A stretch of 64,000 bases of DNA from Myxococcota bacterium (GCA_965223415.1 OZ245002.1:3296001-3360000); one strand, 5' to 3'; shown: positions 1 through 60,144, counted from the first letter of the stretch. Translations and numbers: made by a program. Notes: generated by a model not told the origin, from the sequence alone.

Positions 1-974
1 ATAAACTCTCGCCGCCGAAGGGCATCCTGCTCTACGGCCCTCCGGGCTGCGGCAAGACCCTCATCGCGAAGGCGGTGGCGAACGCCCTGGCCAAGCGCAT
101 CGAGGAGCGGACCGGTCGCGAGACGCCGGCCTACTTCCTCAACGTGAAGGGCCCGGAGCTCCTCAACAAGTACGTCGGCGAGACCGAGCACAAGATCCGC
201 GAGGTCTTCAAGCGCGCGCGAGAGAAGGCCAGCGAGGACGTGCCCGTCGTGATCTTCTTCGACGAGATGGACTCGCTCTTCCGCATGCGCGGCTCCGGAA
301 TCTCCTCGGACATGGAGGCCACCGTGGTGGCCCAGTTCCTCTCGGAGATCGACGGCGTCGAGTCGCTGAAGAACGTGATCGTGATCGGCGCCTCGAACCG
401 GCAGGATCTGATCGATCCCGCCGTGCTGCGCCCCGGCCGCCTCGACCTGAAGGTCAAGGTGAACCGCCCGGATCGCGAGGCTGCCTACGAGATCTTCACC
501 AAGTACCTGGTGGAGGACCTGCCCTTCCACGCCGATTCCGAGCAGCGCTACGGAAGCGATCCCTCGAAGATCGTCGACGGCATGATCCGCGACACCATCG
601 ACGACATGTACAACACGGGCGAGGACAACAAGTTCCTCGAGGTGACCTACGCCAAGGGCGAGCGCGAGATCTTCTACTTCAAGGATTTCGCCAGTGGCGC
701 CATGATCGAGAACATCGTCGCCCGCGCCAAGAAGATGGCGGTGAAGCGATTCATCGACCACCAGGAGCGCGGGATCCGGGTGAACGACCTGAAGCAGGCC
801 GTCCAGGACGAGTTCAAGGAGAACGAGGACCTCCCGAACACGACCAACCCGGACGATTGGGCGCGCATTTCCGGCCGCAAGGGCGAGCGCATCATCAACG
901 TCCGCACCCTGATCAGCGGGATCAGCCGCAAGGAGCGGTCGATCGAGAACATCGATTCCGGTCAGTACCTGTAG
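1..974 (+). CDS. arc: Proteasome-associated AAA+ ATPase ARC/Mpa (5'-truncated by window edge)
   Basis: Frame open from position 3 with Walker A GPPGCGKT, Walker [48 protein letters not shown] and C-terminal GQYL proteasome-docking motif. Confidence 0.95.
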
Positions 975-1009
975 GAGGATCTCGCGTCCCCGCGGCGCCA
1001 GGCACGTTT

Positions 1010-2494
1010 ATGGCGATTCCGAAGGTGATGGGGACCGAGATCGAGTACGGGATCACGGTCAAGAACGACCGGGACTTCGATCCGATCTCGAGCTGCGTGC
1101 TGCTGGTGAACGCCTACCGCGAGGAGCGGGTGGCGAAGATCCTGTGGGACTACGACCAGGAGAACCCGCTGGCGGATGCCCGCGGCTTCCAGGTCGACGG
1201 CGAGAAGTACACGCCGAACCAGCAGGAGAACATCGCCCGCAACAAGACCCTCGAGAACGGTGCCCGCTACTACGTGGACCACGCGCACCCCGAGTACTCG
1301 TGCCCGGAGGTGACCAATCCCCACGAGCTGGTCGTTCACGAGAAGGCCGGCGAGCGGATCGTCGAGTTCTCGCGTCGCGAGGCCACGGCCCTGCTGCCCG
1401 AGGGCACGCAGATGCTGCTCCACAAGAACAACAGCGACCACAAGGGAAACAGCTACGGCTCCCACGAGAACTACCTGATGGACCGCCGGACGTCCTTCAA
1501 GCAGATCGTGGAGCACCTGATGCCGTTCTTCGTGAGCCGTCAGGTCTACACCGGCGCCGGCAAGGTGGGCAGCGAGAACCGGGCCCAGCCCTGCGACTAC
1601 CAGCTCTCCCAGCGGGCCGATTTCTTCGAGACCGAGGTCGCCCTCGACACGATGGTGAAGCGGCCCATCATCAACACCCGCGACGAGCCCCACGCCGATC
1701 GCGAGAAGTACCGGCGCCTCCACGTGATCGTGGGCGACGCGAACATGAGTGAGTACACGATCTACCTGCGCCAGGGCGCCACGGCGATCGTGCTGGCCAT
1801 GATCGAGGACGGCGCCATCGACCGGGATCTCTCGCTCCGCGACCCGGTACGGGCGATCAAGGAGGTCTCCCACGATCGCAGCTGCGCCCGCGAGGTCGAG
1901 CTCGCCACCGGCAAGAAGATGAGCGCCGTGCAGATGCAGCTCGAGTACCTGGAGATGGCCCGGAAGTACTGCGGGACGAGGGAGGTCGGCCCCTGGGCCG
2001 GGGACGTGCTCCAGAAGTGGGGCGAGGTGCTCGACGCCCTCGAGCGCGACCCCCTGGAGCTCGCGGACCGCATCGACTGGGTGATCAAGCAGGTGATGAT
2101 CGAGCGCTTCATGGAGCGGAAGTCGCTCGCGTGGGGTGATCCCCAGGTGCAGCTGCTCGACCTGCAGTACCACGACCTTCGCCCCGAGAAGGGCCTGTAC
2201 TATCTTCTCGAGAGACAGGGTCAGGTGGAACGGATCGTGACGGACCAGGAGATCACGAAGGCGATTACCGAGCCGCCCGAGGACACGCGGGCCTACTTCC
2301 GCGGACAATGCCTGAAGCGCTACGGCGAGGAGGTGTTCGGCGTCAACTGGGACTCGATCTCGTTCGGCATCGGAGACGAGCCGATCAAGCGGGTCCTGAT
2401 GGCGGAGCCGCTCAAGGGCTCCAAGCAGCACGTCGACGACCTGCTCGACCGCTCCTCCAGCGCAGCCGAGCTCGTCAAGAACCTTCGCGCCTGA
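1010..2494 (+). CDS. dop: Pup deamidase/depupylase Dop
   Basis: ATG at 1010; GTEIEYG, ENPLADARG, NGARYYVDHAHPEYS, KGNSYGSHENYL, RPIINTRDEPHAD, RLHVIVGDAN; lies between arc and pup. Confidence 0.92.
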   Translation: MAIPKVMGTEIEYGITVKNDRDFDPISSCVLLVNAYREERVAKILWDYDQENPLADARGFQVDGEKYTPNQQENIARNKTLENGARYYVDHAHPEYSCPEVTNPHELVVHEKAGERIVEFSRREATALLPEGTQMLLHKNNSDHKGNSYGSHENYLMDRRTSFKQIVEHLMPFFVSRQVYTGAGKVGSENRAQPCDYQLSQRADFFETEVALDTMVKRPIINTRDEPHADREKYRRLHVIVGDANMSEYTIYLRQGATAIVLAMIEDGAIDRDLSLRDPVRAIKEVSHDRSCAREVELATGKKMSAVQMQLEYLEMARKYCGTREVGPWAGDVLQKWGEVLDALERDPLELADRIDWVIKQVMIERFMERKSLAWGDPQVQLLDLQYHDLRPEKGLYYLLERQGQVERIVTDQEITKAITEPPEDTRAYFRGQCLKRYGEEVFGVNWDSISFGIGDEPIKRVLMAEPLKGSKQHVDDLLDRSSSAAELVKNLRA

Positions 2495-2548
2495 TCGATC
2501 GCCAGGAGTATCCTCGCTTCTCGCCTGCCCCCCGCCAGGAGACATCCC

Positions 2549-2830
2549 ATGATTCGCCGAACCGAACGACGGAACGACTTCGGAAACGAAGCCGACGCGG
2601 AGCTGCTGCTCCGCACGGCCCACGCCGCCGAGAGCACCCAGAAGCAGAAGACCGGAGACGGCGGCGGCGACGAGGGCGGCGAGAAGGCCGGCGACGGCAG
2701 CAAGAAGCTCGCCAAGAAGGGCGAGGCCCTGAAGGAAGAGATGGACGCCCTCGTCGACGAGATCGACGAGGTCCTCGAGGAGAACGCCGAGGAGTTCGTG
2801 AAGAACTACGTCCAGCGCGGGGGCGAGTAG
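2549..2830 (+). CDS. pup: Prokaryotic ubiquitin-like protein Pup (GGE terminus, extended N-terminus)
   Basis: C-terminal DEIDEVLEENAEEFVKNYVQRGGE; AGGAG RBS 7 nt before ATG; immediately upstream of prcB. Confidence 0.93.
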   Translation: MIRRTERRNDFGNEADAELLLRTAHAAESTQKQKTGDGGGDEGGEKAGDGSKKLAKKGEALKEEMDALVDEIDEVLEENAEEFVKNYVQRGGE

Positions 2831-2873
2831 GCCGCTTCCCGTCCGACACCATCACGCACACCGGGGGGGTTCC

Positions 2874-3668
2874 GTGCGGTTCTGGGATGGATACAAGGGC
2901 AGCAGCTTCATGGAGCTGCTCGACGTCGACTTTCCGCAGCTGAAGCCCGACGTCGGCGCTTGGCTGGCGAGCAGTGGGGAGATGCCGGAGACGGCTCACG
3001 GCACCACCTGCGTGGCGCTGCGCTTCGGCGACGGCGCCCTGGTGGCCGGTGATCGTCTCGCCACCATGGGCCACCAGGTGGCGAATCGCGACATCGAGAA
3101 GGTCTACGCCACCGACGACTTCTCGCTCATGGCGATCGCCGGTGCCGCCGGCCCCGCCATCGAGATGGCGCGGCTCCTCGGCATCCAGTTCGAGCACCAC
3201 GAGAAGATCGAGGGCGAGCCCCTCGAGCTCGAGGGCAAGGCCAACACCCTGGCCTCGCTGATCAAGCAGAACCTCCCGGCGGCCATGCAGGGCCTGGTGG
3301 TCGTGCCGCTCTTCGCCGGCTACGACCGGCGCCGCCGGACCGGGCGCGTCTGGAAGTACGAGGTGACCGGCGGCCGCTACGAGGAGCTCGAGTTCGACAG
3401 CATTGGCTCCGGCTCGATCTTCGCCAAGGAATCCCTCAAGAAGTCGTACGCCTCCGGCGCGAGCCGCGAGGAGGCGATCCGCATGGCCATCCAGGCGCTC
3501 ACCGACGCCGCCGACGAGGACACGGCGACCGGCGGCGTCGACCTGCACCGGCAGATCTTCCCCCGCGTGAAGCTCGTGGGTTCCCGGGGCGTGGATGAGG
3601 TGGGTGACGAGGAGATCGCCCAGGTGTACCAGGGCGTCATCGACGCCCGCCGCCGGCCGGGAGCGTAG
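2874..3668 (+). CDS. prcB: 20S proteasome beta subunit
   Basis: Propeptide ending AHG/TT with catalytic Thr, AGDRLAT, GSGS, DEDTATGG motifs. Confidence 0.93.
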   Translation: MRFWDGYKGSSFMELLDVDFPQLKPDVGAWLASSGEMPETAHGTTCVALRFGDGALVAGDRLATMGHQVANRDIEKVYATDDFSLMAIAGAAGPAIEMARLLGIQFEHHEKIEGEPLELEGKANTLASLIKQNLPAAMQGLVVVPLFAGYDRRRRTGRVWKYEVTGGRYEELEFDSIGSGSIFAKESLKKSYASGASREEAIRMAIQALTDAADEDTATGGVDLHRQIFPRVKLVGSRGVDEVGDEEIAQVYQGVIDARRRPGA

Positions 3669-3670
3669 TC

Positions 3671-4363
3671 ATGTCCTTTCCGTTCTACGTCAACCCGGAG
3701 CAGATGACCCAGGACAAGGCCGAGTTCGCCCGCAAGGGCATCGCTCGGGGCAAGTCCATCGTCACCGTCGAATACGACCAGGGCGTCGTGATGGTGGCCG
3801 AGAACCCGACCCGGCTGCACAAGCTGGGCGAAGTCTACGACCGGGTGGCCTTCGCCGGCGTCGGCAAGTTCAGCGAGTTCGATCGTCTCCGGAAGATGGG
3901 CGTGCAGTGGGCCGACGTGGAGGGCTACCGCTTCAGCCGCGACGACGTGCGCGGCAAGGCCCTGGCCAACGTCTACTCCCAGATCCTGGGCGAGGAGTTC
4001 AGCCGCTCGATGAAGCCCTTCGAGGTGGAGATCGTGGTGGCCGAGGTCGGCGATCCGGAGCTCGTGGGCCACGAGAACAACGCGCTCTTCAAGATCGGCT
4101 TCGACGGCACCGTCCAGGACCAGGAAGGCTTCTGCGTGATCGGCGGCTCCGAGGGCAACCTCCAGAACCACATGCAGTCGAACTACCGGGACGGCCTCGA
4201 CCTCGCGCAGGCCCTTGCCCTCGGGCGTGAGGCGCTCCAGCGGGCCGAGAACGGCACGCCGGACCTGCCGGCCAAGAGCCTCGAGGTCTGCGCGCTCGAT
4301 CGCAGCCGCCCGGGTCGCAAGTTCAAGCGGCTCACCACCGAGGAGGTGGCCGGGCTCATCTAG
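3671..4363 (+). CDS. prcA: 20S proteasome alpha subunit
   Basis: N-terminus MSFPFYVNPEQMTQDKAEFARKGIARGKS, YDRVAFAGVG, KPFEVEIVVAEVG typical of actinobacterial-type PrcA. Confidence 0.93.
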   Translation: MSFPFYVNPEQMTQDKAEFARKGIARGKSIVTVEYDQGVVMVAENPTRLHKLGEVYDRVAFAGVGKFSEFDRLRKMGVQWADVEGYRFSRDDVRGKALANVYSQILGEEFSRSMKPFEVEIVVAEVGDPELVGHENNALFKIGFDGTVQDQEGFCVIGGSEGNLQNHMQSNYRDGLDLAQALALGREALQRAENGTPDLPAKSLEVCALDRSRPGRKFKRLTTEEVAGLI

Positions 4364-5232
4364 GCGCCGGCCGTCCGTCCCTTCAGGTAGGCGTAGCCCG
4401 CCCTCGCCGTGGCGAGCGGATCGGGCGCCGTGTCATGCTCGACGAAGTAGTGGCGGAGCCCGGCCTGTCCGGCCCGGGCGAAGATCGCCTCGAAGGGCAC
4501 CGTGCCTTCGCCCGGGTCGACGAAGGTGCCGTCCGCCAGCACATCCTTCACGTGGCAGACGGGGAAGCGTCCCGGGAAGCGGGCGAAGGCCGGCAGCGGA
4601 TCGAAGCCCGCCGCCTTCGCCCAGCCGAGATCGATTTCCAGGCGCACCCGCTCCGGATCCGTCTCCTCGAGGATCACGTCGTAGGGGAGGCGGCCCTCCA
4701 CCGGCGTGAACTCGAAGTGGTGGTTGTGATAGCCGAAGACGAGGCCGGCCTTCGAGAAGGCCTCGCCCATGGCGTTCAGCTCAGAGGCGATCGCCTTCCA
4801 GTCGTCGAGGGAGAGGTCGGTGCGGATGCGCCACTCGCCCTTCTCCTGGTAGACGACCTGGCGCGGCGCCGAGAGGAAGACGTACCTCGCGCCCAGGGCG
4901 TGGGCCGCTTCGATCTCCTGCTCCGGCGGACCCTCCAGGTGCGTCGACGGCGCGCGCAGGCCGAGGCCGTCGAGCATTGACCGGATCTCGCCGGGAGCGT
5001 GACCGGCGCGTCCGGAGACCTGCACCTCCCGGTAGCCGATCGCCGCGACCTTCTCGAGGGTGCCGCGGTAGTCCTTCGCCAGGAGCTCTCGCAGGGTGTA
5101 GAGCTGGAGTCCGGGCTCGATCGGGGTCTCGGTGGATGTCATGGCGGCTCCTGGGCCGAGGGCCGCGCTCCCGGCACCGAGCGCAGCCGCGGTATGCAGG
5201 AAGTGCCGCCGGGTGAAGCCTCGATCGCCCAC
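4360..5232 (-). CDS. Tat-exported sugar phosphate isomerase/epimerase family TIM-barrel protein
   Basis: TRRHFL twin-arginine signal; GLQLYTLR, YHNHHFEF, EIDLGW, HVKD, FVEHD motifs. Confidence 0.85.
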   Translation of the reverse strand: MGDRGFTRRHFLHTAAALGAGSAALGPGAAMTSTETPIEPGLQLYTLRELLAKDYRGTLEKVAAIGYREVQVSGRAGHAPGEIRSMLDGLGLRAPSTHLEGPPEQEIEAAHALGARYVFLSAPRQVVYQEKGEWRIRTDLSLDDWKAIASELNAMGEAFSKAGLVFGYHNHHFEFTPVEGRLPYDVILEETDPERVRLEIDLGWAKAAGFDPLPAFARFPGRFPVCHVKDVLADGTFVDPGEGTVPFEAIFARAGQAGLRHYFVEHDTAPDPLATARAGYAYLKGRTAGA

Positions 5233-5285
5233 GAGAGCGACGCTACCGCCTCCCCGCGGGGCCGGCCAGTCCCGCGGAACGCACC

Positions 5286-5322
5286 GAAAGCTCCCGGCCG
5301 TACCTGCCGATAGAGGAAGGGC
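5286..5322 (+). promoter_or_regulatory. Putative sigma28-like promoter upstream of pafA
   Basis: GAAA-N16-GCCGATAG; 18-mer TGCCGATAGAGGAAGGGC matches the mreB upstream 18-mer at 16/18. Confidence 0.4.
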
Positions 5323-5353
5323 TACATTGGCCCTCCGGACCGGGTGGGAGCGC

Positions 5354-6760
5354 GTGCAGAAGCGAATCTACGGAGTCGAGACCGAGTACGGGATCATCTT
5401 CACCCCTGAGGGGCGGAAGACCCTGCCGGTCGAGAAGGCGATCCGCTTCCTGTTCGAGAAGCTGATCACCACGGAGCACTTCCTGAACGTGTTCCTGGAG
5501 AACGGCGCGCGCTTCTACCAGGACACGGGCTGTCACCCGGAGTACGCGACGCCGGAGTGCGCCTCGCCCCGCCAGCTGATCGTCTACGACCGGGCCGGCG
5601 AGCGGATCCTGGAAGACCTCCAGGACTATGCCGAGGAGAAGATCCGCGAAGAGCGGATCGCCGGAAAGCTCTCGATCTTCAAGAACAACACCGACTTCGT
5701 CGGGAACTCCTACGGCTGCCACGAGAACTACCTCGTCGACCGCGACGTGGACTTCTACTACCTGGCCGAGCAGCTGATCCCGTTCCTGGTCACCCGCCAG
5801 ATCTACACCGGCGCGGGCAAGGTCTTCCAGACCCAGGACGGCGTGCACTACTGCATCAGTCAGCGCGCCCAGCACATCTACCAGAAGATCTCGGGCACGA
5901 CGACGAACGACCGCTCGATCATCAACACTCGCGACGAGCCCCACGCCGACCGGGAGCGCTATCGGCGCCTCCACGTCATCGTCGGTGATTCGAACATGAG
6001 CGAGTACACGAACTTCGTGAAGATCGGCTCGTGTGCGGTGGTCCTCCAGATGATCGAGGACAACTACATCAACAAGGACTTCACGCTCCGCAACCCGGTC
6101 AAGGCGATCAAGGACATCTCCTACGACACGACCTGCAAGCGGAAGCTGCGCCTCGACAACGGGCGCGAGTACTCGCCCATCGAGATCCAGCGCGAGTACT
6201 GCGAGATGGCCCAGAAGTACATCGAGCAGTACCCGGTTTCCGACGAGCTCAAGGAGAGCGTCGGCATGTGGCAGTACGTGCTCGACTGCCTCGACGACGA
6301 TCCCAACAGGCTCGACCGCAAGATCGACTGGGTAATCAAGCGCCGGCTGATCGAGAGCTACGTGGAGCGCCACGGCTCCCGCTGGAGCGATCCGCGGGTA
6401 TTCATGCTCGACCTCCAATACCACGACATCCGCGTGAGCCGCGGCCTCTACTACCTCCTCGAGCGCAAGGGCGCGGTGGATCGCATCCTGAACGACGAGG
6501 AGATCATCAAGGCCAAGACCGAGCCGCCCCCGGACACCCGGGCGCGGATGCGCGGCGAGTTCATCAAGCTCGCGCGCCAGAACGGCATCCAGTACGACCT
6601 GGACTGGTCGAACATCCGGCTCGGCAACCTGCTCAACGTCCGCGTGATCTGCAACAATCCCTTCGAGACGGACACGGAGAAGGTGGCCGAGCTGGTGCGC
6701 ACGATCCAGAAGACGAACCTGCGCAAGACCAGCCTGTCGAAGCTAGTGATCCAGTCTTGA
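5354..6760 (+). CDS. pafA: Pup--protein ligase PafA
   Basis: GTG start after GGGAG; RIYGVETEYG, NVFLENGARFY, HPEYATPEC, KNNTDFVGNSYGCHENYL, SQRAQHI, INTRDEPHAD, DLQYHDI, PPPDTRA. Confidence 0.92.
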   Translation: MQKRIYGVETEYGIIFTPEGRKTLPVEKAIRFLFEKLITTEHFLNVFLENGARFYQDTGCHPEYATPECASPRQLIVYDRAGERILEDLQDYAEEKIREERIAGKLSIFKNNTDFVGNSYGCHENYLVDRDVDFYYLAEQLIPFLVTRQIYTGAGKVFQTQDGVHYCISQRAQHIYQKISGTTTNDRSIINTRDEPHADRERYRRLHVIVGDSNMSEYTNFVKIGSCAVVLQMIEDNYINKDFTLRNPVKAIKDISYDTTCKRKLRLDNGREYSPIEIQREYCEMAQKYIEQYPVSDELKESVGMWQYVLDCLDDDPNRLDRKIDWVIKRRLIESYVERHGSRWSDPRVFMLDLQYHDIRVSRGLYYLLERKGAVDRILNDEEIIKAKTEPPPDTRARMRGEFIKLARQNGIQYDLDWSNIRLGNLLNVRVICNNPFETDTEKVAELVRTIQKTNLRKTSLSKLVIQS

Positions 6761-6782
6761 TCCAGACCCGCGGAGGCCCCCC

Positions 6783-7208
6783 ATGACCGACGCACGTCCG
6801 CATCTCGTCGCCCTGGACCCGGACGCAACGCCGCCGGAAGCCGGCGGAGCGCCGGCGCCGGCTCCCTCCGAAGGACCGCCCGCCCTCGGCCGCTACGGCT
6901 GGGTCGCCGCCGCCCTGGCGCTGGTCTGTGCGATCGGCTGGGGCGTCATGGCCAACCGCGCCTCGCAGCTCGAGGGCGAGCTCGCGGCCTCCCAGGCGGC
7001 CCTGGCCGCCGCCGAGGGCCGTATCGAGGACTACCAGGCACACTTGGGCCAGGTCCGAGAGCGCACCGAAGGGCTCGTGGCCGGCATGGACGCGCTGGTC
7101 GGACAGCTCGGCTCCCTGGCCACGGACCTCGAGAGCCTGGGCGGCCTCGTGGGCGACGACCCCACAGCCGCCGGCAACGAGCCCGGCGAAGCACCCGCCG
7201 GGCCTTAG
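6783..7208 (+). CDS. Hypothetical single-pass membrane protein with coiled coil
   Basis: GGAGG RBS; hydrophobic segment WVAAALALVCAIGWGVM followed by heptad-like helix; host-like codon usage. Confidence 0.65.
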   Translation: MTDARPHLVALDPDATPPEAGGAPAPAPSEGPPALGRYGWVAAALALVCAIGWGVMANRASQLEGELAASQAALAAAEGRIEDYQAHLGQVRERTEGLVAGMDALVGQLGSLATDLESLGGLVGDDPTAAGNEPGEAPAGP

Positions 7209-7293
7209 CTCTTCCGGCCGCCCGCGTCCTCGAGGCGCACCCGGGGTGCGCTCATTTCCCGCGCAATTCCGGCGGCTTCCGGCCGTCCGTCAC

Positions 7294-7329
7294 TCAACTC
7301 CTGCCGCCTCGTGCCGATAGGGGAAAGGC
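7294..7329 (+). promoter_or_regulatory. Putative sigma28-like promoter upstream of mreB
   Basis: TCAA-N15-GCCGATAG, close to the FliA/WhiG consensus TAAA-N15-GCCGATAA. Confidence 0.45.
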
Positions 7330-7372
7330 CGGCCCGGTCCATGCCGGACGGGCCCTGCGCGAGGCGACCTTC

Positions 7373-8407
7373 ATGCTCGACGCCATTGCCGGCCTGTTCA
7401 GTAGCGACCTGGCCATCGATCTGGGCACGGCCAACACCCTGGTCTACGTGAAGGGCAAGGGCCTGATCTGCTCGGAGCCGTCGGTCGTCGCCGTGGCGAA
7501 GGACTCGAGCGGTCGCGGCGACAAGGTGCTGGCGGTCGGCCACGAGGCCAAGGAGATGCTCGGCCGCACGCCCGGCGGCATCCGCGCCATCCGCCCGATC
7601 AAGGACGGCGTCATCGCCGACTTCGAGATCACCGAGGCGATGCTCCGCTACTTCATCCAGCGCGCCCACAACCGGCGCAAGCTGGTCCGCCCGCGCATCG
7701 CGATCTGCGTGCCGCCCTGCATCACCAGCGTCGAGAAGCGCGCGGTGCGCGAGAGCGCGCTCAGCGCCGGCGCCCGCGAGGTGTACCTGATCGAGGAGCC
7801 GATGGCGGCGGCGATCGGCGCCGGCCTCGACGTGACGGCGGCGACGGGCAACATGGTCGTCGACATCGGCGGCGGCACCACCGACGTCGCAGTGATCTCG
7901 CTCTCGGGCATCGTCACCAGCCGATCGATCCGCTGCGGCGGCGACGCCATGGACGACGCCGTCGTCAACTACGTGAAGCGCAAGTACAACATGCTGATCG
8001 GCGAGCGTACCGCCGAAGGCTGCAAGGTGAACATCGCCACGGCTTCGCCGACGGCGAAGACCGAGACGATGGAGATCAAGGGCCGCGACCTCGTCGCCGG
8101 CATCCCGAAGGTCGTCGTCACGACCAGCGAGGAGATCCGCGAGGCGCTGCTCGAGCCGATCGGCCAGATCGTCGAGACCGTCCACCTCACCCTCGAGCGC
8201 ACCCCGCCGGAGCTGGCCGCCGACATCGTCGACCGCGGCATCATGCTCGTTGGCGGCGGCAGCCTGCTGAACGATCTCGACCAGGTCCTCCGCCAGGAGA
8301 CCAAGCTCCCGATCCTGCGCAGCGAGGATCCCTTCACGGCAGTGGTCCACGGCGCCGGCCGCGCGCTGGACAATCTGGACCTGCTGAAGGAAGTGGCGAT
8401 CCAGTAG
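7373..8407 (+). CDS. mreB: Rod shape-determining actin homolog MreB
   Basis: AIDLGTANT, RPIKDGVIADF, IEEPMAAAIGAG, DIGGGTT, GERTAE, LERTPPELAADI. Confidence 0.95.
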   Translation: MLDAIAGLFSSDLAIDLGTANTLVYVKGKGLICSEPSVVAVAKDSSGRGDKVLAVGHEAKEMLGRTPGGIRAIRPIKDGVIADFEITEAMLRYFIQRAHNRRKLVRPRIAICVPPCITSVEKRAVRESALSAGAREVYLIEEPMAAAIGAGLDVTAATGNMVVDIGGGTTDVAVISLSGIVTSRSIRCGGDAMDDAVVNYVKRKYNMLIGERTAEGCKVNIATASPTAKTETMEIKGRDLVAGIPKVVVTTSEEIREALLEPIGQIVETVHLTLERTPPELAADIVDRGIMLVGGGSLLNDLDQVLRQETKLPILRSEDPFTAVVHGAGRALDNLDLLKEVAIQ

Positions 8408-17044: not shown

Positions 17045-17656
17045 TTCGGCCGCAAGCAGGGATCGCTGGTGAGGAGCTTCGTCGCCGTCTCGCTTCCGGA
17101 GCCGGCGCGGGTGGCCTGCGCGGCGCTGGCCTGCGAGCTGGCGGGCGCGAGCGGCGGGGAGGGCGTCCGCTGGGTGCGCAGCGAGGGCTACCACGTGACC
17201 CTGCGCTTCCTGGGCAACGTCGCCTGCGAGGAGCTGCCGGAGCTGGGCGAGCGGCTGGCGGACGCGGTGGCGGGCGTCGCGCCCTTCGAGCTCAGCCTGG
17301 GCGCGCCGTACCTGTTTCCGAAGGGACGGCGGGCCAAGGTCGTTGCCCTGGGGCTCGCGCCGGAGGAGCCGCTTCAGGAGCTTCAGGCGCGCGTGGAGCA
17401 GGCGGTGGTGGCCCACGGCTTCGAGCCCGAGACGCGGGCCTTCCATCCGCACCTCACCCTCGGCCGCATCCGCAACCGCCGGGTGCCCTCCCTGGACCGG
17501 GTGCCCGCCCCGGCCGCACCGGCCCTTCCCGTTTCCGAGGTCGCGCTCTACCGCAGCGATCTCGCCCGTGACGGCGCCCGCTACACGGCGCTCGCGCGGT
17601 GTCCGCTCGCCGCGGAGCCCGCGCACTCGTTTTCTCACCCTGAGATTCATCGATAG
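17039..17656 (+). CDS. thpR: RNA 2',3'-cyclic phosphodiesterase (2'-5' RNA ligase family)
   Basis: Two 2H motifs HVTLRFLG and PHLTLGR; RSFVAV N-terminus; alternative GTG start at 17069. Confidence 0.88.
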
Positions 17657-17667
17657 GAGAGGTGGAC

Positions 17668-18777
<1,110 letters not shown>

Positions 18778-18810: not shown

Positions 18811-18985
18811 CGCCGGTCCCGGGCGCCGGCCGGGCGGAATGGCTCGGCCGGGGATCCGGGGCCGCGTACCGGCTCGCATGGAGGGGTCGCCGCTTCTGGC
18901 CTTCGGCCGGCGGCAACCTGAGCGCACGACGGTCGTCGTGCCTGCCTGCGCTTGATTTCCGCCCGGCCGGCGCCCGGAACCGGCG
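18811..18985. repeat. ~175-bp structured element with 29-bp terminal inverted repeats, copy 1 (MITE/REPIN-like or structured RNA)
   Basis: Ends CGCCGGTCCCGGGCGCCGGCCGGGCGGAA ... TTCCGCCCGGCCGGCGCCCGGAACCGGCG; roughly 90% identical by eye to 20497-20670. Confidence 0.85.
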
Positions 18986-19134
18986 CGGCGATGGGTTGGT
19001 GTGCTCGTGCCGCGGTGCGAGGAGGGTCGACTCGGGTCTGCTCGGAAGGAGGAGTGGGGGCAACGCGGGGCGTTCGCGTTGCCCCCGACCATTCCCTCAT
19101 GCGAACCGGCGCGCCCCGGAGCAACGGGGCCTCC

Positions 19135-19147
19135 CAACTGGTTGATA
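19135..19147. promoter_or_regulatory. Putative IHF binding site upstream of pilT
   Basis: CAACTGGTTGATA fits YAANNNNTTGATW exactly, in a locally AT-richer stretch. Confidence 0.4.
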
Positions 19148-19261
19148 TTCCAGCTCTTTTCCGGGCGTCCGTCTCGCACACCCAGCCTGCTCAAGGAGAG
19201 GCCCAGGGCGGTCGAAACACAGGCGAAGCCCCGGCGAACCCGGGAGAGGATTTCTGCGCGA

Positions 19262-20458
19262 ATGCCCATCCAGCTCGACGACATCCTGAAGGTGGCCCTG
19301 AAAGGCGGCGCGTCCGACATCCACTTGAAGTCCGGTCTCCCGCCGATGTTCCGGGTCGACGGCGCTCTCGTTCCGCTGAAGAACGGCGAGCGGATCCTGC
19401 CCGACGAGATGCAGAAGCTGGCGCTCAGCATCATGAACCCGGTGCAAAAGGCGCGCTTCGAGGAATACCGCGAGGCGGATCTGGCCTACGGCATTCCGGG
19501 GCTCGGCCGCTTCCGCGTCAACGTCTTCCAGCAGCGCGGAACCGTTGGCATCGTCTTCCGGGTCATTCCCTTCGGCGTGAAGACGATCGAGCAGCTGCTT
19601 CTGCCGCGGGTGATCGAGAAGATCGCGATGGAGCATCGCGGGCTCGTGCTCGTGACCGGGACGACGGGCTCCGGCAAGTCGACCAGCCTCGCGGCCATGA
19701 TCGACTACATCAACTCGAACCGGACCTCGCACATCATCACCATCGAGGACCCGATCGAGTTCCTGATCCGCGATCGCCGCTCGATCGTGAACCAGCGCGA
19801 GATCGGCGTCGACACCCAGAGCTTCGCCAACGCCCTGCGCGCGGCCCTGCGCCAGGACCCGGACGTCATCCTGGTCGGCGAGATGCGCGATTTCGAGACC
19901 ATCGAGACCGCCATCACCGCCGCCGAGACCGGCCACCTGGTGATGAGCACGCTCCACACCCTCGACGCCACGGAGACGATCAACCGCATCATTTCCGTCT
20001 TCCCGCCCTACCAGCAGAAGCAGGTGCGGCTGCAGCTGGCGTCGATCCTGAAGGCGGTCATCTCCCAGCGCCTGGTGCCCCGTGCCGACGGCAAGGGCCG
20101 GGTGCCCGCCCTCGAGGTGATGGTCTCCACCGCCCGCGTGCGCGAGTGCATCGGCGACAAGGATCGCACCAAGGAGCTCCACGACGCCATCTCGAAGGGC
20201 TTCACGACCTACGGCATGCAGACCTTCGACCAGTCGCTGATGCACCTGGTGAAGCAGGAGCTCGTCACCTACGACGAGGCGCTCAAGCACGTCTCGAACC
20301 CCGACGACTTCGCCCTGCGCTTCCGCGGCATCGCCTCCACCTCCGACGGCACCTGGGACGACTTCGAGTCCGACGAAGAGGGGGAGGAGGCCAAGGCCGA
20401 AGAGGAGGCGCCGGCTTCCGAGTCCTCCTCCGAAGACGACTTCATCGAGAGGTTCTAG
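19262..20458 (+). CDS. pilT: Type IV pilus retraction ATPase, PilT/PilU family
   Basis: [71 protein letters not shown]. Confidence 0.92.
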
Positions 20459-20496: not shown

Positions 20497-20670
20497 CGCC
20501 GGTCCCGGGCGCCGGCCGGGCGGAATGGCTCGGCCGGGACACGGGGGCCGCGTAGGGCTCGCATGGAGGGGTCACCGCTTCCGGCCTTCGGCCGGCGGCG
20601 ACCTGAGCGCACGACGATCATGGTGCCTGCCTGCGCTTGATTTCCGCCCGGCCGGCGCCCGGGACCGGCG
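20497..20670. repeat. ~175-bp structured element with perfect 29-bp terminal inverted repeats, copy 2
   Basis: Same orientation and sequence as 18811-18985; internal CTTCGG-capped hairpin. Confidence 0.85.
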
Positions 20671-20948
20671 TTCGCGTCTTCATGGACGGACGCCGATCCC
20701 TTCGTGATGGGGCGCTTGGGCGGGCGGGCGTGGCTGAGAGGAGAGGGTGGAGCCGCCTCGGGGTTCGGAGGGGCGCGTTGCACGCGTTGCCTCCACCCCC
20801 TTCTTCTCTTCGTCGCTGGGTGGTGGTCCGAGTCCCCTCCCGATGTAGGGATCGCGGGGCCCACCCGCCGCCCCGCGATCTCGCACCGAGGAGCGAAGCG
20901 GCCCCCCTCCGGTATCTTCCCCGCCTTCCACCCCCAGGAGGTCCGGCC

Positions 20949-23587
20949 GTGGCGTGGTCTGCGCGAGACGTGCGCGAGACGTTTCTCTCGTTCTTCGAGG
21001 AGCGGGGGCATGCCCGTGTCCCCAGTGCGTCGCTGGTGCCGGAGAACGATGCCACGCTGCTCTTCGTCAACGCGGGGATGGTGCAGTTCAAGCGGACCCT
21101 CACCGGCGAGGAGACGCGGCCGTACTCCCGGGCGGTGACGACCCAGAAGTGCATGCGGGTCTCGGGCAAGCACAACGATCTCGAGGAGGTCGGGCGGAGC
21201 CCGCGGCACCACACCTTCTTCGAGATGCTCGGGAACTTCTCCTTCGGCGACTACTTCAAGCAGGACGCGATCCGCTACGCCTGGGAGCTGGTCACCGAGC
21301 ACTACCGGATCGACCCGGCAGACCTGGTCGTCTCGGTGTTCCGCGAGGACGACGAGGCGGCGGATATCTGGGAGCGGGAGATCGGCCTACCGCCCGGCAG
21401 GATCTACCGGCTCGACGAGGCCGAGAACTTCTGGAGCATGGGAGACACGGGGCCCTGCGGGCCGTGCACGGAGATCCACCTGGACCGGGGGCCGGTCGCG
21501 GGCTGGGACGACGACGATCCCTCCAGCGAGTCCGGGCGCTTCCTCGAGTTCTGGAACCTGGTGTTCATGCAGTTCAACCGGGAGGCCTCGGGGAAGATGG
21601 AGCCGCTGCCGAAGCCTTCGGTCGATACCGGCGCCGGCCTGGAGCGCGTCACCACCGTCCTGAACGGGATGGAGAGCACCTACCAGACGGACCTCTTCAC
21701 CCGGATCCTGGCGCGGGCCCAGGAGCTCGCCGGCGTGAGCCTCGGCAGCGCCGCCGAGAGCGACGTCTCGCTCAAGGTCGTGGCGGACCACGCGCGGGCG
21801 GTCTCCTTCCTGATCGGCGACGGGGTGCTGCCGTCGAACGAAGGGCGCGGCTACGTGCTGCGGCGGATCCTGCGGCGCGCGTCACGCCACGGCGTCCTGC
21901 TCGGCATCGAAGGCCCCTTCCTCCACGCGGTGGCCGACGCGGTGATCGACGAGATGGGCCCGGTCTTCCCGGAGCTGGTCGAGCGCCGGGCCTACGTGAC
22001 CGATCGGGTGAAGCGGGAGGAGGAGCGCTTCCTCGAGACCCTGAGCAAGGGCCTCTCGCTCCTCGAGGAGGAGATCACCGAGGTGAAGGCCGGCGGCGGG
22101 GACATCCTCCCCGGGCCGGTCGTGTTCCGTCTCTACGACACCTTCGGCTTCCCGGTCGACCTGACCCAGGACATCCTGCGCGGCCACGACCTGCGCACCG
22201 ACGACGCGGGCTTCCAGGCGGAGATGGAGGCCCAGCGCTCGCGCTCGCGCCAGGCGTGGAAGGGCAGTGGCGACGCCGGCGTGTACGAGATCTACGGCCG
22301 CATGGCGGCGGATCTCTGCACCAGCTTCGTCGGCTACGAGACCCTCGAGCACGGCGCCCCGGTGACGGCCCTGCTGCGCGGCGGCGAGCCGGTGGAGGAG
22401 GCCGGCACGGGCGACGAGATCGAGCTCGTCGTGGCGGAGACGCCCTTCTACGCCGAGAGCGGCGGCCAGGTCGGTGACATCGGCACCATCGCCACGCCCT
22501 CCGGCCGCATGGAGGTCGAGGACGTGCAGCGGCCCTCCGGCGAGCTGGTGGTACACCGGGGCAAGGTCGCGTCCGGGACGATCCACGTGGGCGAGGCGGC
22601 GGAGCTGGCCGTCGACGCGGAGGCCCGGGCGGCGACGGTGCGCAACCACACGGGAACCCACCTCCTCCACGCGGCCCTGCGCCAGGTGATCGGCCCCCAG
22701 GCGATGCAGAAGGGCTCGCTCGTCGCGCCGGATCGCCTGCGCTTCGACTTCACCCACGACGCGCCGCTCAGCGACGACGAGATCGAGCGCATCGAGGATC
22801 TGGCGAACGCCTGGATCGAGGCGAACGCCTCCGGTGCCGTGCGCACGATGGACTACAAGAGCGCGGTCGAGGCGGGCGCGATCGCGCTGTTCGGCGAGAA
22901 GTACGGCGACGACGTCCGCGTGGTCTCCTTCGGCGACGTCTCCACCGAGCTCTGCGGCGGAACCCACGCCAGGGCGACCGGGGACATCGGCCTGCTCAAG
23001 GTGGTTTCGGAGTCCGGCATCGCCGCCGGCGTGCGGCGCATCGAGGCGCTGACGGGCCTCGGCGCCCTGCATCACCTGCGCGAGCAGGGGCGCACCCTGC
23101 GCCAGCTCGGCGAGCTCCTGAAGGTGCCGGCGGAGCAGGCGCCGGACCGGATCCGCAAGCTCCTCGACGAGCGCAAGGCGGCAGAGAAGGAGATCGCCGA
23201 TCTGAAGCGCGCCCAGCTCTCCGGGGGCGGCGGGGCGGATGGCGGCGGCTGGGAGCAGGCCGGCGAGCTGTGGCGCTACGGCCGCAAGCTCAGCGGCGCC
23301 AGCGGCAAGGAGCTGCGCGGGATGGTCGACGACCTGCGTAACCAGAAGTCGCCGGCGGTGGTGTGCCTCATCTCCGACGCCGGCGAAGGCAAGGTGGCCG
23401 TGGCGATCGGCGTGACGCCGGACCTGCGCGAGCGCCTGCCCGCCGGCGCGCTGATGAAGGACGTGGCGCCGATCGTCGGCGGCAAGGGGGGAGGGCGGCC
23501 CGACTTCGCCCAGGGTGGCGGCAGCGACGCCTCCCGGATCGACGACGCGCTGGCCGCGTTCGAAGCCGCGGTGGCCTCGAGGCTCGG

Positions 23588-23591
<4 letters not shown>
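20949..23591 (+). CDS. alaS: Alanine--tRNA ligase
   Basis: GTG after AGGAGG; FVNAGMVQFK, HHTFFEMLGNFSFGDYFK, GPCGPCTEI, DTGAGLER, NHTGTHLLH, ELCGGTH, GGKGGGRPDFAQGGG. Confidence 0.97.
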
Positions 23592-28507: not shown

Positions 28508-29323
28508 CTAGTTCGGGGTGGCCGGCAGTCGGTCCTGGGCGGCCTTGGCCACGTCGCTACCTTCGTAGTTCTCGAGCAGGACTTCGAAGATGTGCGTGGC
28601 CTGGTCGTCGCGGTTCAGGTTCTGGTAGCAGACACCGAGCTTGTAGAGGGCGTCCGCGTCGAGGCCGAGGCCCGGGTACTCGTTCAGCACCGAGCGGAAC
28701 CGGTTCGCCGCACTCTGGAACTCTCCGCGCTCGAAGTAGAAATCACCGATGCCCATCACGTGGGTGCCGAGCTTGGTGCGCAGCTCCTTCCAGAGCGTCT
28801 CTGCCTCGGTGGCCTCCGGGGCGTAGGGGAAGCGGGTGATCACCGCGTCGAGCTGGGCCAGGGCGTCGCGGGTGGCGGTCTGGTCGCGGCCGGGCTCGCG
28901 GCTCTGGTTCTGGTGGCACTTGGCGGCGCGGAGCAGCGCGTAGGGCACCGAGCGGTGGTCCGGGTGGAGCTCGGCGAAGTCCCGGTAGTAGGTGAGCGCC
29001 TCTTCGTAGGATTCCTGCTGGTAGAAGGCGTCGGCGATCTTCAGCTCCGCGTCCGCCACGAGATCGCTGTAGGGGTAGTTGTCGATGATGTCCTGGAACT
29101 TCTGGATCGCGCCGGCATAGTCGGTCACGTCCATGGTCATGAAGCTCTTGCGGTCGGCGAGCAGCGCCTTGCCTTCCTCGAAGAGCTGCTCCGCGGTCGG
29201 CATCTCCTCGAGCTCGGCGTCGGGCGTCGACGCGCAGCCGGCGAGGCCGGCCAACGAGAGGGTCATGACGAGAACGATCGCCGCCCGGTGGGCCAGGCGA
29301 GTGGTTCGAAGCGCGGAAGACAT
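28508..29323 (-). CDS. bamD: Outer membrane protein assembly lipoprotein BamD
   Basis: Lipobox LAGC; DNYPYS, AELKIADAFY, FAELHP, RDQTAT, IGDFYF, AANRF TPR pattern. Confidence 0.87.
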   Translation of the reverse strand: MSSALRTTRLAHRAAIVLVMTLSLAGLAGCASTPDAELEEMPTAEQLFEEGKALLADRKSFMTMDVTDYAGAIQKFQDIIDNYPYSDLVADAELKIADAFYQQESYEEALTYYRDFAELHPDHRSVPYALLRAAKCHQNQSREPGRDQTATRDALAQLDAVITRFPYAPEATEAETLWKELRTKLGTHVMGIGDFYFERGEFQSAANRFRSVLNEYPGLGLDADALYKLGVCYQNLNRDDQATHIFEVLLENYEGSDVAKAAQDRLPATPN

Positions 29324-29389
29324 GCGGCACACCCCCGAAGGTCGTCCGGAAGATCCCCGATTTGGAAGGGTTTTCCGAGACGCCCCGGC

Positions 29390-29419
29390 AAGCTACCCGA
29401 AGCGTGAAGGCGGTGTCAA
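29390..29419 (-). promoter_or_regulatory. sigma70-type promoter for bamD
   Basis: Minus strand TTGACA-N18-TAGCTT. Confidence 0.55.
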
Positions 29420-56234: not shown

Positions 56235-57974
56235 TCACTTCTCTTCGAGGAGGGCTTCGTAGTGGGTGCGGGCTTCGGCGGCGGCGCGGAGGAGGGCGGG
56301 GCGGTTGCGACGGAGGTGCTCGAGGGGGATGGCGTCGGAGTAGGGGATCCAGTCCCATAGGGTCTGGTCTTCGATGCGGTCGTCGCCCAGGCGGGCCTCG
56401 AGGTCGGCGATGCGGGCGAGGGCCTCCCGGGCGCGGCGGTGGGTGTGGGGGCCGCGCTCGTGGCCCGGCAGCGTCAGGTAGATGGCGCCGGTGTGGGCGG
56501 CGCTGGGGCGCACGCCGCCCCGCTCCCGGTAGTAGGCTTCGCTCGTCTCGACCAGTTCGGCGAAGTCGAAGGCACGTCGGCCGATCTGCTCCGCGATCCA
56601 GCCGCCGAAACCTCCCGGGGCCTCGAAGACGACGGGCGTCTCGCCGAGCTTGTCGCCCCGCACGCGCAGGGCGAGCCAGCCCGCTTCGTCGAGCAGGGTC
56701 CGTGTCTCGACGCGGAGGTCGCCGGGCGCCGCCTCGCGGGTCGGCAGCGGCCGCGCCTCGCCGTTCACGACCAGCTCGACGTGCTGCACGTCGTCCCGCG
56801 TCGGGTCGAACCGCACCCGCGCACGCACCGTTGCCTGGAGGACGCCAGGCAGGGGAAGCTCGTCGCCGATCCCCGCATCCTCCACCTCCAGCTCGAGCAC
56901 CGGCCCGTTCGTCACGAACGTGCGCCCGGCGCGCACTGCCGCGACCATCGCGGCCCGATCCGGCGGCCCGTCCGCTCGCAGGTAGAAGCGCTCGCGCCCG
57001 GGAATGCCCGCAAAGGGCCCGCACGGGAAGTCCGTGCCGGCGGTCGGGGCGATGCGCAGGCCCAGATCGAGGAGGTCGTACCAGTCCCGGTACCACGGGA
57101 AGTCGAACTGCAGCACCTCGAGGAAGAAGGCCAGCTCCCGTGGCGCATCCAGGGTGAGGCCGGTGCGGGCAGCCCCGAGCCCCCAATGCGCGTAGCCCGG
57201 CAGCCCGTTCTGGCGCAGGCCTTCGCGGAAGGTCGTCTCGTACACGATGTAGGTGTCGCGCCGGTCCACCAGGGCGTCGGCGCCGAGGGTGATCGTGTGG
57301 CCGAGGAAGTGGGTGCGGGGATGCTCCTGGCCCGCGAAGAGCGTCGTGTCGCCGCGCCGGTACTCGCCGGCATCGCCGAAGGCCAGCTGGGGTGTCACGC
57401 TGATCTGGTCCACCGTGCCCATCTGCAGCAGGTTCGCGACGCGCAGGTCCTCGGCGGCCATCCACGTCGCGATGCGCTCCGAATCCGCCTCGCTGCGCCG
57501 CGTGATGTGGACGTGGTCGTCCACCGAGTACCATCCTTCCGAGGCGAGATCGGCCCAGCGCTCGAGGGGCACCTCCAGCCGGGTCTCCACGCCGGCCGTG
57601 ACCAGGGCCTCGTGCTCGGCCACGCGCACCTCGGGCCCGCGGAAGACGCGCAGGCGGTAGCGACCAGGGGGCAGGTCGAGGGCTCCCTCGCCGGTGAGGT
57701 AGAACTGGTCGGTGCCCGTGGGCCCGTTCGGGATGCGGTCCGAGCGGATCATGCTCTCCGCCCACGCCGCCGGCGGTGCCATGAAGCACTCGAAGGTGAG
57801 GGGCAGGGCGTCGGGGGACACCCAGGCCGTGCCCCGCGCGTCGAGCAGCTCGAGCCGTGCCGGCACCGGCGGGCCGCCCTCGCCGTCCAGCACCCGGATC
57901 GCGAGGCGCCCGGTCGCCGGGGGCTCGGTGCACGCCAGCAGCAGGGCGACGAGGGGGACGGCCAGCTTCCTCAT
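56235..57974 (-). CDS. Lipoprotein, CehA/McbA-like PHP-fold metallohydrolase
   Basis: Lipobox LLAC; GWYSVDDHVH, GQEH, GH, YAH, AGTDFP, GRTFVTNGP. Confidence 0.75.
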   Translation of the reverse strand: MRKLAVPLVALLLACTEPPATGRLAIRVLDGEGGPPVPARLELLDARGTAWVSPDALPLTFECFMAPPAAWAESMIRSDRIPNGPTGTDQFYLTGEGALDLPPGRYRLRVFRGPEVRVAEHEALVTAGVETRLEVPLERWADLASEGWYSVDDHVHITRRSEADSERIATWMAAEDLRVANLLQMGTVDQISVTPQLAFGDAGEYRRGDTTLFAGQEHPRTHFLGHTITLGADALVDRRDTYIVYETTFREGLRQNGLPGYAHWGLGAARTGLTLDAPRELAFFLEVLQFDFPWYRDWYDLLDLGLRIAPTAGTDFPCGPFAGIPGRERFYLRADGPPDRAAMVAAVRAGRTFVTNGPVLELEVEDAGIGDELPLPGVLQATVRARVRFDPTRDDVQHVELVVNGEARPLPTREAAPGDLRVETRTLLDEAGWLALRVRGDKLGETPVVFEAPGGFGGWIAEQIGRRAFDFAELVETSEAYYRERGGVRPSAAHTGAIYLTLPGHERGPHTHRRAREALARIADLEARLGDDRIEDQTLWDWIPYSDAIPLEHLRRNRPALLRAAAEARTHYEALLEEK

Positions 57975-58047
57975 GCTCCGGAGCATACGTCGTCCGGGAA
58001 GGGTCGGTGGGGTACGTTGGCCGGAACGGCCCACCACGGAGGACGCC

Positions 58048-59859: not shown

Positions 59860-59868
59860 CGAGCCCCC

Positions 59869-60144
59869 GTGAAGGCCACCTTCTACGCCACCCTGCGCCC
59901 GATCGTGGGCGCGCGCAGCGTCGAGATCGATCTCGCGCCCGGCGCCACGGTCCAGACCTTGATCGAGCTCCTGGCGGGGCGCTGGCCCGGGCTGCGCGAG
60001 CATCTCTTCACCGACGAGGGAGGCCTCTCGCGCCGGGTGAACGTGTTCGTGAACGGCCGCAACGTGCGTTGGCTGGAGGGAGGGGCCACGCAGCTGGACG
60101 GTGTCGGCGAGGTGGACTTCTTCCCGCCGGTCGCCGGAGGTTAG
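59869..60144 (+). CDS. MoaD/ThiS/SAMP-like beta-grasp sulfur carrier
   Basis: FYATLR, VNVFVNG, C-terminal FPPVAGG. Confidence 0.88.
   Translation: MKATFYATLRPIVGARSVEIDLAPGATVQTLIELLAGRWPGLREHLFTDEGGLSRRVNVFVNGRNVRWLEGGATQLDGVGEVDFFPPVAGG

Follow-up and report, generated by a model that had tools for sequence, protein, structure and literature searches.

Does a bacterium with an outer membrane hold a complete Pup-proteasome system of the actinobacterial kind, and is that system a resident of long standing or a newcomer? The question is raised by a 64-kb stretch of DNA (the window; G000:C1:3296001-3360000) from a Myxococcota genome, which is assembled as a single 5.83-Mb contig (97% complete, 1.7% contamination). 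Reviews, in the parts available to us, place the bacterial proteasome and pupylation largely in Actinobacteria, with sporadic exceptions such as Nitrospirae (PMC3511204, PMC6466877, PMC8223512). Positions 1-6760 of the window contain, all on the plus strand, the 3′ part of arc followed by dop, pup, prcB, prcA and pafA, in the order and on the strand given in a preliminary description of this DNA. We consider it very likely that these genes specify a functional Pup-proteasome system that works as it does in Actinobacteria, encoded in one compact, vertically inherited operon with a likely sigma-54 promoter. Coordinates are window positions unless another record is named.

A complete Pup-proteasome operon

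The locus carries a complete and intact Pup-proteasome operon. All six proteins score above the NCBIfam equivalog cut-offs over their full length, each has a homologue of solved structure, and every element of the arrangement first described (arc with GQYL, dop, pup with GGE, prcB, prcA, an inverted TIM-barrel gene, pafA) is present with its motifs intact. The gene for the proteasomal AAA+ ATPase, arc (mpa), enters the window with its 3′ part (1-974, +; PF17758, PF16450, PF00004, and TIGR03689 at 745.5 bits against a cut-off of 504.75). The complete gene (L084:11112-12974) starts 888 nt upstream of the window, at G000:C1:3295112, and encodes 620 amino acids (aa): a long N-terminal helical region, judged by eye to be coiled coil, two OB domains and an AAA domain, with KYVGE in the translation and the docking motif GQYL at the C-terminus.

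The depupylase/deamidase gene dop (1010-2494, +; 494 aa from an ATG start) matches TIGR03688 at 587.6 bits (cut-off 492.3), and its product aligns end to end with PDB 4b0r (residues 5-492, 529.7 bits), the Dop-specific loop region included. The pup gene (2549-2830, +; 93 aa), encoding prokaryotic ubiquitin-like protein, is read from an ATG with AGGAG 7 nt upstream; Pup matches PF05639 (66 bits, cut-off 27) and TIGR03687 (56.3 bits, cut-off 41.45) and ends in ...EEFVKNYVQRGGE, that is QRGGE. It is followed by prcB (2874-3668, +; TIGR03690, 296.7 bits against 191.9), which encodes the 20S proteasome beta subunit with a propeptide ending in AHG directly before TTCVAL; counted from Thr1, the active-site residues Asp17 and Lys33 are present. 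The alpha subunit gene prcA (3671-4363, +; 230 aa) matches TIGR03691 at 279.2 bits (cut-off 139.05).

The last gene, pafA (5354-6760, +; 468 aa), encodes the Pup--protein ligase and matches TIGR03686 over model positions 1-455 of 457 (557.2 bits against 551.3); the alignment of the protein to PDB 4b0t covers residues 2-449 (362 bits). Its best start is the GTG at 5354 (MQKRIYGVETEYG...), and the start at 5132 implied by the preliminary description is a spurious 5′ extension.

Between prcA and pafA lies a xylose-isomerase-like TIM-barrel gene (4360-5232, −; PF01261), whose stop overlaps that of prcA by 4 nt and which separates pafA from the rest of the operon. It has a counterpart in none of the 80 best related loci, the set to which all counts of related loci refer, and no paralogue elsewhere in the genome; the dop-to-pafA gap of a same-genus genome (G068) is shorter by 861 nt, approximately the length of this gene. 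Twin-arginine (Tat) export signals have the consensus S/T-R-R-x-F-L, and the N-terminus ...TRRHFLHTAAALGAG... (TRRHFL), read by eye, fits such a signal. The absence of a counterpart and the Tat-type signal rule the gene out as part of the module, among whose genes it had been listed; to judge from these comparisons, it was inserted in this species only, is unrelated to its neighbours and stands outside the Pup system.

Conservation and inheritance in the class

The distribution of the system was examined in 401 sampled genomes of the phylum: G000, 77 others of the same class and 323 from outside the class. Strong matches to both PafA and Dop (E about 1e-160 and 1e-120) are found in 75 of the 77: nine of the ten other genomes of the family, 52 of 53 from other families of the order, and all 14 from the other sampled family of the class. 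Outside the class, 11 of the 323 genomes give matches, all weak (E 7e-4 to 2e-42). Five of these 11 were tested, and in each what matches is a protein of about 630 aa that is homologous, at 33-39% identity, to a membrane-type Pup-ligase paralogue considered below.

The order arc-dop-pup-prcB-prcA-pafA is present in 69 of the 80 related loci, and the remaining 11 are cut by contig ends; one of the 69 (L007) has arc and dop in frameshifted pieces. All 45 loci that include both flanks have ftsK before the operon and mreB after it. The proportion of G and C at third codon positions (GC3) is 0.88-0.94 in the six genes, within the range of the other likely genes of the window (0.81-0.98), in keeping with the host-like codon usage described earlier. 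Overall GC content of positions 1-8000 is lower, at 0.645-0.681, the remainder of the window lying at about 0.69-0.76; since GC3 is host-like, this difference must sit in codon positions 1 and 2.

Because it is present throughout the class, keeps a fixed ftsK...mreB setting and has host-like GC3, the operon is old and fitted to its host. It is vertically inherited across the whole Myxococcota class, and the locus is neither recent nor chimeric. The preliminary description spoke of an old, ameliorated acquisition: age and fit to the host stand, and the word acquisition is drawn solely from the absence of the system in the rest of the phylum, which shows neither donor nor direction. It had also raised the possibility of a chimera joined between pafA and mreB. 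The ftsK...mreB synteny of relatives runs across this junction, as does one of two zero-difference short-read contigs of a public sequencing run; these contigs span 3272-5458 and 6632-7630, so bridging the TIM-barrel gene on either side as well as the interval from pafA to mreB, and may derive from the source sample.

Median identities of relatives' proteins to those of the window were calculated over the related loci. PafA stands highest at 89% (n=80), above even MreB (85%, n=68); Arc (n=66), Dop (n=69) and the partial FtsK (n=50) are each at 77%, Pup is at 71% (n=73), and PrcB (n=74) and PrcA (n=79) are both at 60%. These values suggest that the Pup-proteasome proteins are under purifying selection across related species. 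The last 20 residues of Pup (VLEENAEEFVKNYVQRGG followed by E or Q; ...FVKNYVQRGGE here) are invariant in 73 loci except for the final position, which gives GGE in 41 and GGQ in 32.

The host

The host is supported as a diderm Myxococcota bacterium. Public labels of the 80 best related loci are Myxococcota, Myxococcales or Deltaproteobacteria, and the genome encodes the diderm markers Omp85/BamA, LpxC, BamD/YfiO (in the window) and LolA. The lolA gene (120.2 bits, cut-off 112) lies directly upstream of arc. Both lines of evidence agree with the diderm, deltaproteobacteria-like host proposed at the outset and place the contig in Myxococcota, not in Actinomycetota, the alternative then considered. 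About a dozen metagenome-assembled genomes of the clade are publicly labelled Spirochaetales or Spirochaetaceae, and single ones Gammaproteobacteria or Desulfobacterales; these labels are probably taxonomic errors.

A sigma-54-type element before arc

A −24/−12 element, cGGCATGGGCTTTGCA, is located at L084:11044-11059, 68 nt before the arc ATG. Its core, GGCATGGGCTTTGCA (L084:11045-11059), has GG at −24 and GC at −12 with canonical spacing, the canonical form being TGGCAC-N5-TTGCW. Relatives were scanned with GGYAY-N5-YTGCW, and this motif is found upstream of arc in 62 of the 65 that have at least 400 nt of upstream DNA, at distances of 42-178 nt and mostly 70-80 nt. The background is 72 occurrences in 1.45 Mb (plus strand, all loci), or 0.023 expected per 460 nt, and within the 64-kb window the motif has no match. 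When 13 upstream sequences are aligned (mean column identity 47%), the only invariant blocks are GGCA, TTGC, the ribosome-binding site and ATGAGCGA.

The genome contains rpoN (G000:C1:5189481-5189957; PF04552, 212.7 bits). Scans of positions 1-7400 for sigma-70-type promoters and for terminators gave numbers at the level of shuffled sequence (1 versus 0.4 and 3 versus 3.6, respectively). The motif and its conservation point to a sigma-54 (−24/−12) promoter before arc as the one from which the operon is most likely transcribed.

How the system would work

If the six proteins act as their counterparts do, PafA would use ATP to join the side-chain carboxylate of the C-terminal Glu of Pup to lysines of substrate proteins. 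A hexamer of Arc/Mpa would bind Pup by its N-terminal coiled coils and unfold the tagged protein, and the C-terminal GQYL of Arc would dock on the PrcA ring so that the substrate could be fed into the PrcAB 20S core, whose beta subunit, PrcB, is expected to mature to an N-terminal Thr. Dop would take Pup off again as a depupylase. A Pup ending in GGE needs no deamidation; in this genome Pup is made in that form, and therefore no prior deamidation is called for, from which it follows that Dop would here be mainly a depupylase, as had been proposed. The GGQ end of Pup in 32 of the 73 relatives means, by the same reasoning, that the deamidase role of Dop is still needed in much of the clade. In this lineage the six genes form a single compact operon between lolA and mreB, which an enhancer-binding activator would turn on in response to some particular condition.

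Two further genes bear on protein degradation in this genome. A PAC2-family gene (C1:3634406-3635062, 181 bits) is found some 335 kb away from the operon, and among 14 control genomes the family is otherwise matched only in Corynebacterium and archaea; PAC2 has been proposed as the ancestral proteasome chaperone, in the part of the source available (Iyer et al. 2008, PMC2588565). There is also an HslV-like gene (C1:183787-184302). A search for BPA/PafE gave no match in this genome or in any control genome and is uninformative.

Several observations weigh against a working, sigma-54-driven operon. In this genome the minus-strand TIM-barrel gene parts pafA from prcA, and neither the sigma-70-type nor the sigma-54 motif scan gave a promoter-like site before pafA behind that insertion. 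Dependence on sigma-54 is predicted from the motif; the 13-sequence alignment has no conserved upstream activator block, and no enhancer-binding protein was identified, no search having been aimed at one. PafA clears its equivalog cut-off by a narrow margin (557.2 against 551.3 bits), and for the lineage as a whole enzymatic activity is predicted from genes. Two metatranscriptome libraries contain contigs, 90-95% alike, that match arc, dop, pup at its 3′ end, pafA and mreB; their source is relatives, and DNA can be present in libraries of this sort, so that they give a weak hint of transcription rather than proof. Positions 2101-2700, 3301-3600 and 4201-5100 have scarcely any cover in these libraries, which is uninformative, as the contigs there come from relatives.

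Origin of the operon

The closest relatives outside the class were sought in a PafA family search of 1.84 billion representatives, which gave 6486 family members; 150 representatives were taken up. The best PafA outside the query's own kind is P0005, which is 62% identical and has close kin labelled candidate division KSB3. A large group of 464-aa PafA proteins is 62-63% identical, and one of these is labelled Candidatus Entotheonellaceae. Another neighbour, P0011, has kin among PafA proteins whose labels read Rokubacteria/Methylomirabilota and Polarisedimenticolia. For P0009, which comes next outside the clade, there are three close relatives only, one of them labelled Aenigmatarchaeota, and it is uninformative. 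Identity to the actinobacterium Nonomuraea gerenzanensis is 49% for PafA, 51% for Dop, 53% for Pup, 49% for PrcB and 47% for PrcA.

A careful IQ-TREE analysis was made with 34 rows, including 16 representatives picked by length and nearness, and rooted on Dop. Myxococcota rows form a clade (98/99), which joins the Entotheonellaceae-like and KSB3-like rows (82/98), whereas Nonomuraea-type and Rokubacteria-type rows fall in a separate clade (100/98) from which all of these are excluded. The window's Dop falls together with P0016 (95/95) and outside the Nonomuraea Dop group (98/99). In this sample, anchored by a single named actinomycete, the system appears not to be nested in the actinobacterial clade. 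The same tight six-gene order is present in 15 of 27 long metagenome loci of the sister groups, genes being assigned by best hit; the other long loci are truncated or have one gene assigned to a paralogous query.

We weigh, as a tentative alternative to an actinobacterial source, that the compact operon belongs to an old diderm-type lineage of such systems shared with KSB3-like and Entotheonellaceae-like bacteria, which either passed between these phyla or predates the actinobacterial clade sampled here. PafA identities of 62-63% to proteins with these labels, as against 49% to Nonomuraea, argue for it, as do both groupings in the tree and the shared compact gene order. Against it, the anchor of the tree is one named actinobacterium and the rows include no named Nitrospirota, Acidimicrobiia or other deep Actinomycetota; the ultrafast bootstrap of the joining branch is just 82; and bin labels are fallible, close relatives being labelled Saccharimonadia and Aenigmatarchaeota. 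The rest of Myxococcota is without the system, so some transfer into the class would still be needed.

A fuller version strikes us as slightly more doubtful: that the Pup-proteasome system is no actinobacterial speciality lent to a few other bacteria, and that a distinct, old and compact diderm-type operon lineage, common to the Myxococcota class and to KSB3-like and Entotheonellaceae-like bacteria and sister to the sampled actinomycete clade instead of nested in it, was rewired in the Myxococcota class under a switch made of sigma-54 and an enhancer-binding protein. If it were true, regulated proteasomal proteolysis, probably linked to starvation or development, would be a core trait of an uncultured group.

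Two observations on these relatives may be recorded here. The Entotheonellaceae-like loci L114 and L116 (GC 47%) each have a second PafA-like gene (L114:13669-15006, −; L116:12630-13967, −), 55% identical to the window's, which is on the opposite strand and is separated from the operon, upstream of it, by about 3.3 kb. Four proteins of 572-705 aa among the Rokubacteria-type relatives (P0382, P0385, P0386 and P0401) contain both Pup_ligase and Proteasome Pfam domains, and represent genuine prcA-pafA fusions or else adjacent genes merged in gene calling.

Regulatory pupylation and recent transfer

A different reading of function is that in this genome pupylation serves chiefly as a reversible, regulatory modification or marks proteins for some other partner, with the 20S core contributing little. 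This could resemble the situation in corynebacteria that lack a proteasome, or could involve a third gene of the Pup_ligase family in this genome. The third gene lies outside the window, 240 kb away (locus G000:C1:3535803-3539434, equal to L085:5803-9434); its product of 642 aa (PF03136, 258.9 bits) has a hydrophobic, probably transmembrane insert, and it directly follows a gene for a 547-aa rhomboid-domain protein ending in ...DAFDFSEE. The genome has three Pup_ligase-family genes yet a single pup gene, and for the Plesiocystis type of ligase the pupylation of membrane proteins has been proposed, in the part of the source available (Iyer et al. 2008, PMC2588565). The lower conservation of PrcB and PrcA (median 60%) relative to PafA (89%) and to Arc or Dop (77%) would also fit a minor role for the core.

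On the other side, prcB and prcA are retained in 74 and 79 of the 80 related loci, which is every locus that reaches them; the catalytic Thr1, Asp17 and Lys33 are intact, Arc keeps its GQYL docking tail, and a PAC2 homologue is present. We regard a mainly regulatory role as unlikely and prefer a complete pathway in which tagged proteins would be degraded by the 20S core.

Finally, it is extremely improbable that the module was recently transferred from an actinobacterium, belongs to a contaminating contig of actinobacterial origin or is an assembly chimera joined near pafA and mreB: the lower GC content of positions 1-8000, a DDE transposase gene about 5 kb upstream of arc and one foreign-looking gene, the TIM barrel, within the module are outweighed by host-like GC3, an ftsK...mreB context repeated in 45 independent assemblies, PafA and Dop in 75 of the 77 sampled class genomes, identities to Nonomuraea of just 47-53%, a PafA that lies outside the clade joining Nonomuraea and Rokubacteria-type sequences (100/98), the zero-difference contigs over 3272-5458 and 6632-7630, the quality of the single-contig genome, and the implausibility of a mis-assembly common to related assemblies from many studies.

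Neighbouring genes

Upstream of arc are ftsK and lolA, and downstream of the operon is a series of core genes: mreB (7373-8407), ruvX, cinA, recA (17644-18777), a T2SSE/PilT-type ATPase gene (18956-20458), alaS (20607-23591), ispG, bamD/yfiO (28508-29392, −), pth, dnaB and genes for ribosomal proteins. The context given in the preliminary description is thus recovered as to bamD, the pilT-type ATPase and the recA-pilT-alaS block; DUF1844, which it also named, was not seen among 34 open reading frames (ORFs) scanned at E≤1e-5, the one search made.

Between pafA and mreB is a 141-aa ORF (6783-7208, +) with one predicted membrane helix and, after it, a coiled-coil-like stretch. No family matched it, and in 12 of the 80 related loci this position is taken by similar ORFs (weak, 30-69%). 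The DDE transposase gene (DUF772 and DDE_Tnp_1; L084:5011-6099, −), beside plsC and ftsK, is the sole mobile-element gene seen near the locus. Farther along the window is an aldehyde:ferredoxin oxidoreductase gene (57703-60144, +; AFOR_N and AFOR_C), with a small ThiS/MoaD-like gene directly after it. Sequencing-run shares of 0.05-0.14 were recorded in marine, sediment, mangrove and soil metagenomes, and are no evidence of habitat.

Comparison with known systems

No paper on the Pup-proteasome system of this lineage was found in the literature searched, which lay outside the supplements of the cited papers, and the chance that the locus was already well described, raised at the outset, was not borne out there; nor was a paper found in that literature on the compact operons labelled KSB3 and Entotheonellaceae. 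Bins of Myxococcota, KSB3, Entotheonellaceae and Rokubacteria already have proteins named Pup--protein ligase by NCBI automatic annotation. The finding is an extension of a known system to a new host group, with a textbook mechanism and not a new one; what is modestly new in it is the sigma-54 element, together with the diderm-type clade of PafA.

UBact loci, reportedly described by Lehmann et al. in 2017 from several Gram-negative phyla, are said to combine a small tag ending in Glu or Gln with a proteasome and with enzymes like PafA and Dop. In the present locus the tag fits the Pup models PF05639 and TIGR03687, as expected of the GG-type Pup first described, and would differ from UBact, a contrast which that description also drew.

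A precedent for the full system in a Gram-negative phylum is provided by Nitrospirota, where it has been attributed, in the part of the source available, to transfer from Acidimicrobiales (Barandun et al. 2012, PMC3511204). The statement that the full set is a hallmark of Actinomycetota and sporadic elsewhere agrees with the reviews, so far as their available text goes, but is too narrow: PafA proteins are labelled as KSB3, Entotheonellaceae, Rokubacteria/Methylomirabilota and Polarisedimenticolia, and the sister lineages hold compact six-gene operons. The one pupylation-related system reported for a myxobacterium so far, in the part of the source available, is the Plesiocystis/Rhodopirellula type, in which the Pup ligase is membrane-anchored and proteasome genes are lacking (Iyer, Burroughs and Aravind 2008, PMC2588565). 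It is like the third Pup_ligase gene of this genome, which shares both the insert and the rhomboid neighbour, and unlike the window's PafA and Dop, which have no membrane insert and are linked to arc and prcBA. This membrane type is what the rest of the phylum carries, in all five genomes tested.

The nearest relatives are the operons labelled KSB3 and Entotheonellaceae (P0158, P0168, P0267; L087, L091, L094 and others), with identities of 62-66% for PafA, 52-62% for Arc and 53-63% for Dop. They share the tight six-gene order, and differ in belonging, by label, to other phyla, in a GC content of 46-57% and in the −24/−12 element, which is found before arc in none of the 21 sister-lineage loci with enough upstream DNA.

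All six components of the actinobacterial system, as represented by Mycobacterium tuberculosis (Mpa, Dop, Pup, PrcB, PrcA and PafA), are common to both, with the same motifs (GQYL, GG[E/Q] and Thr1/Asp17/Lys33) and the same order arc-dop-pup-prcB-prcA-...-pafA. Here, however, the host is a diderm with BamA, BamD, LolA and LpxC, a sigma-54-type element precedes arc, and pafA is followed by the small membrane coiled-coil ORF and mreB instead of pafBC-like genes. The operon is also compact, whereas the Nonomuraea locus has 5.7 kb between pup and prcB and 1 kb between prcA and pafA, and sequence identity between the two is about 47-53%. The full system is in this way a conserved core-genome trait of a large outer-membrane-bearing lineage with its own promoter type. 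Its comparison with the mycobacterial system bears on which features are general and which are mycobacterial, on a cytoplasmic tag-and-degrade pathway in a diderm that also keeps an HslV-type gene, and on how and when the system spread between phyla.

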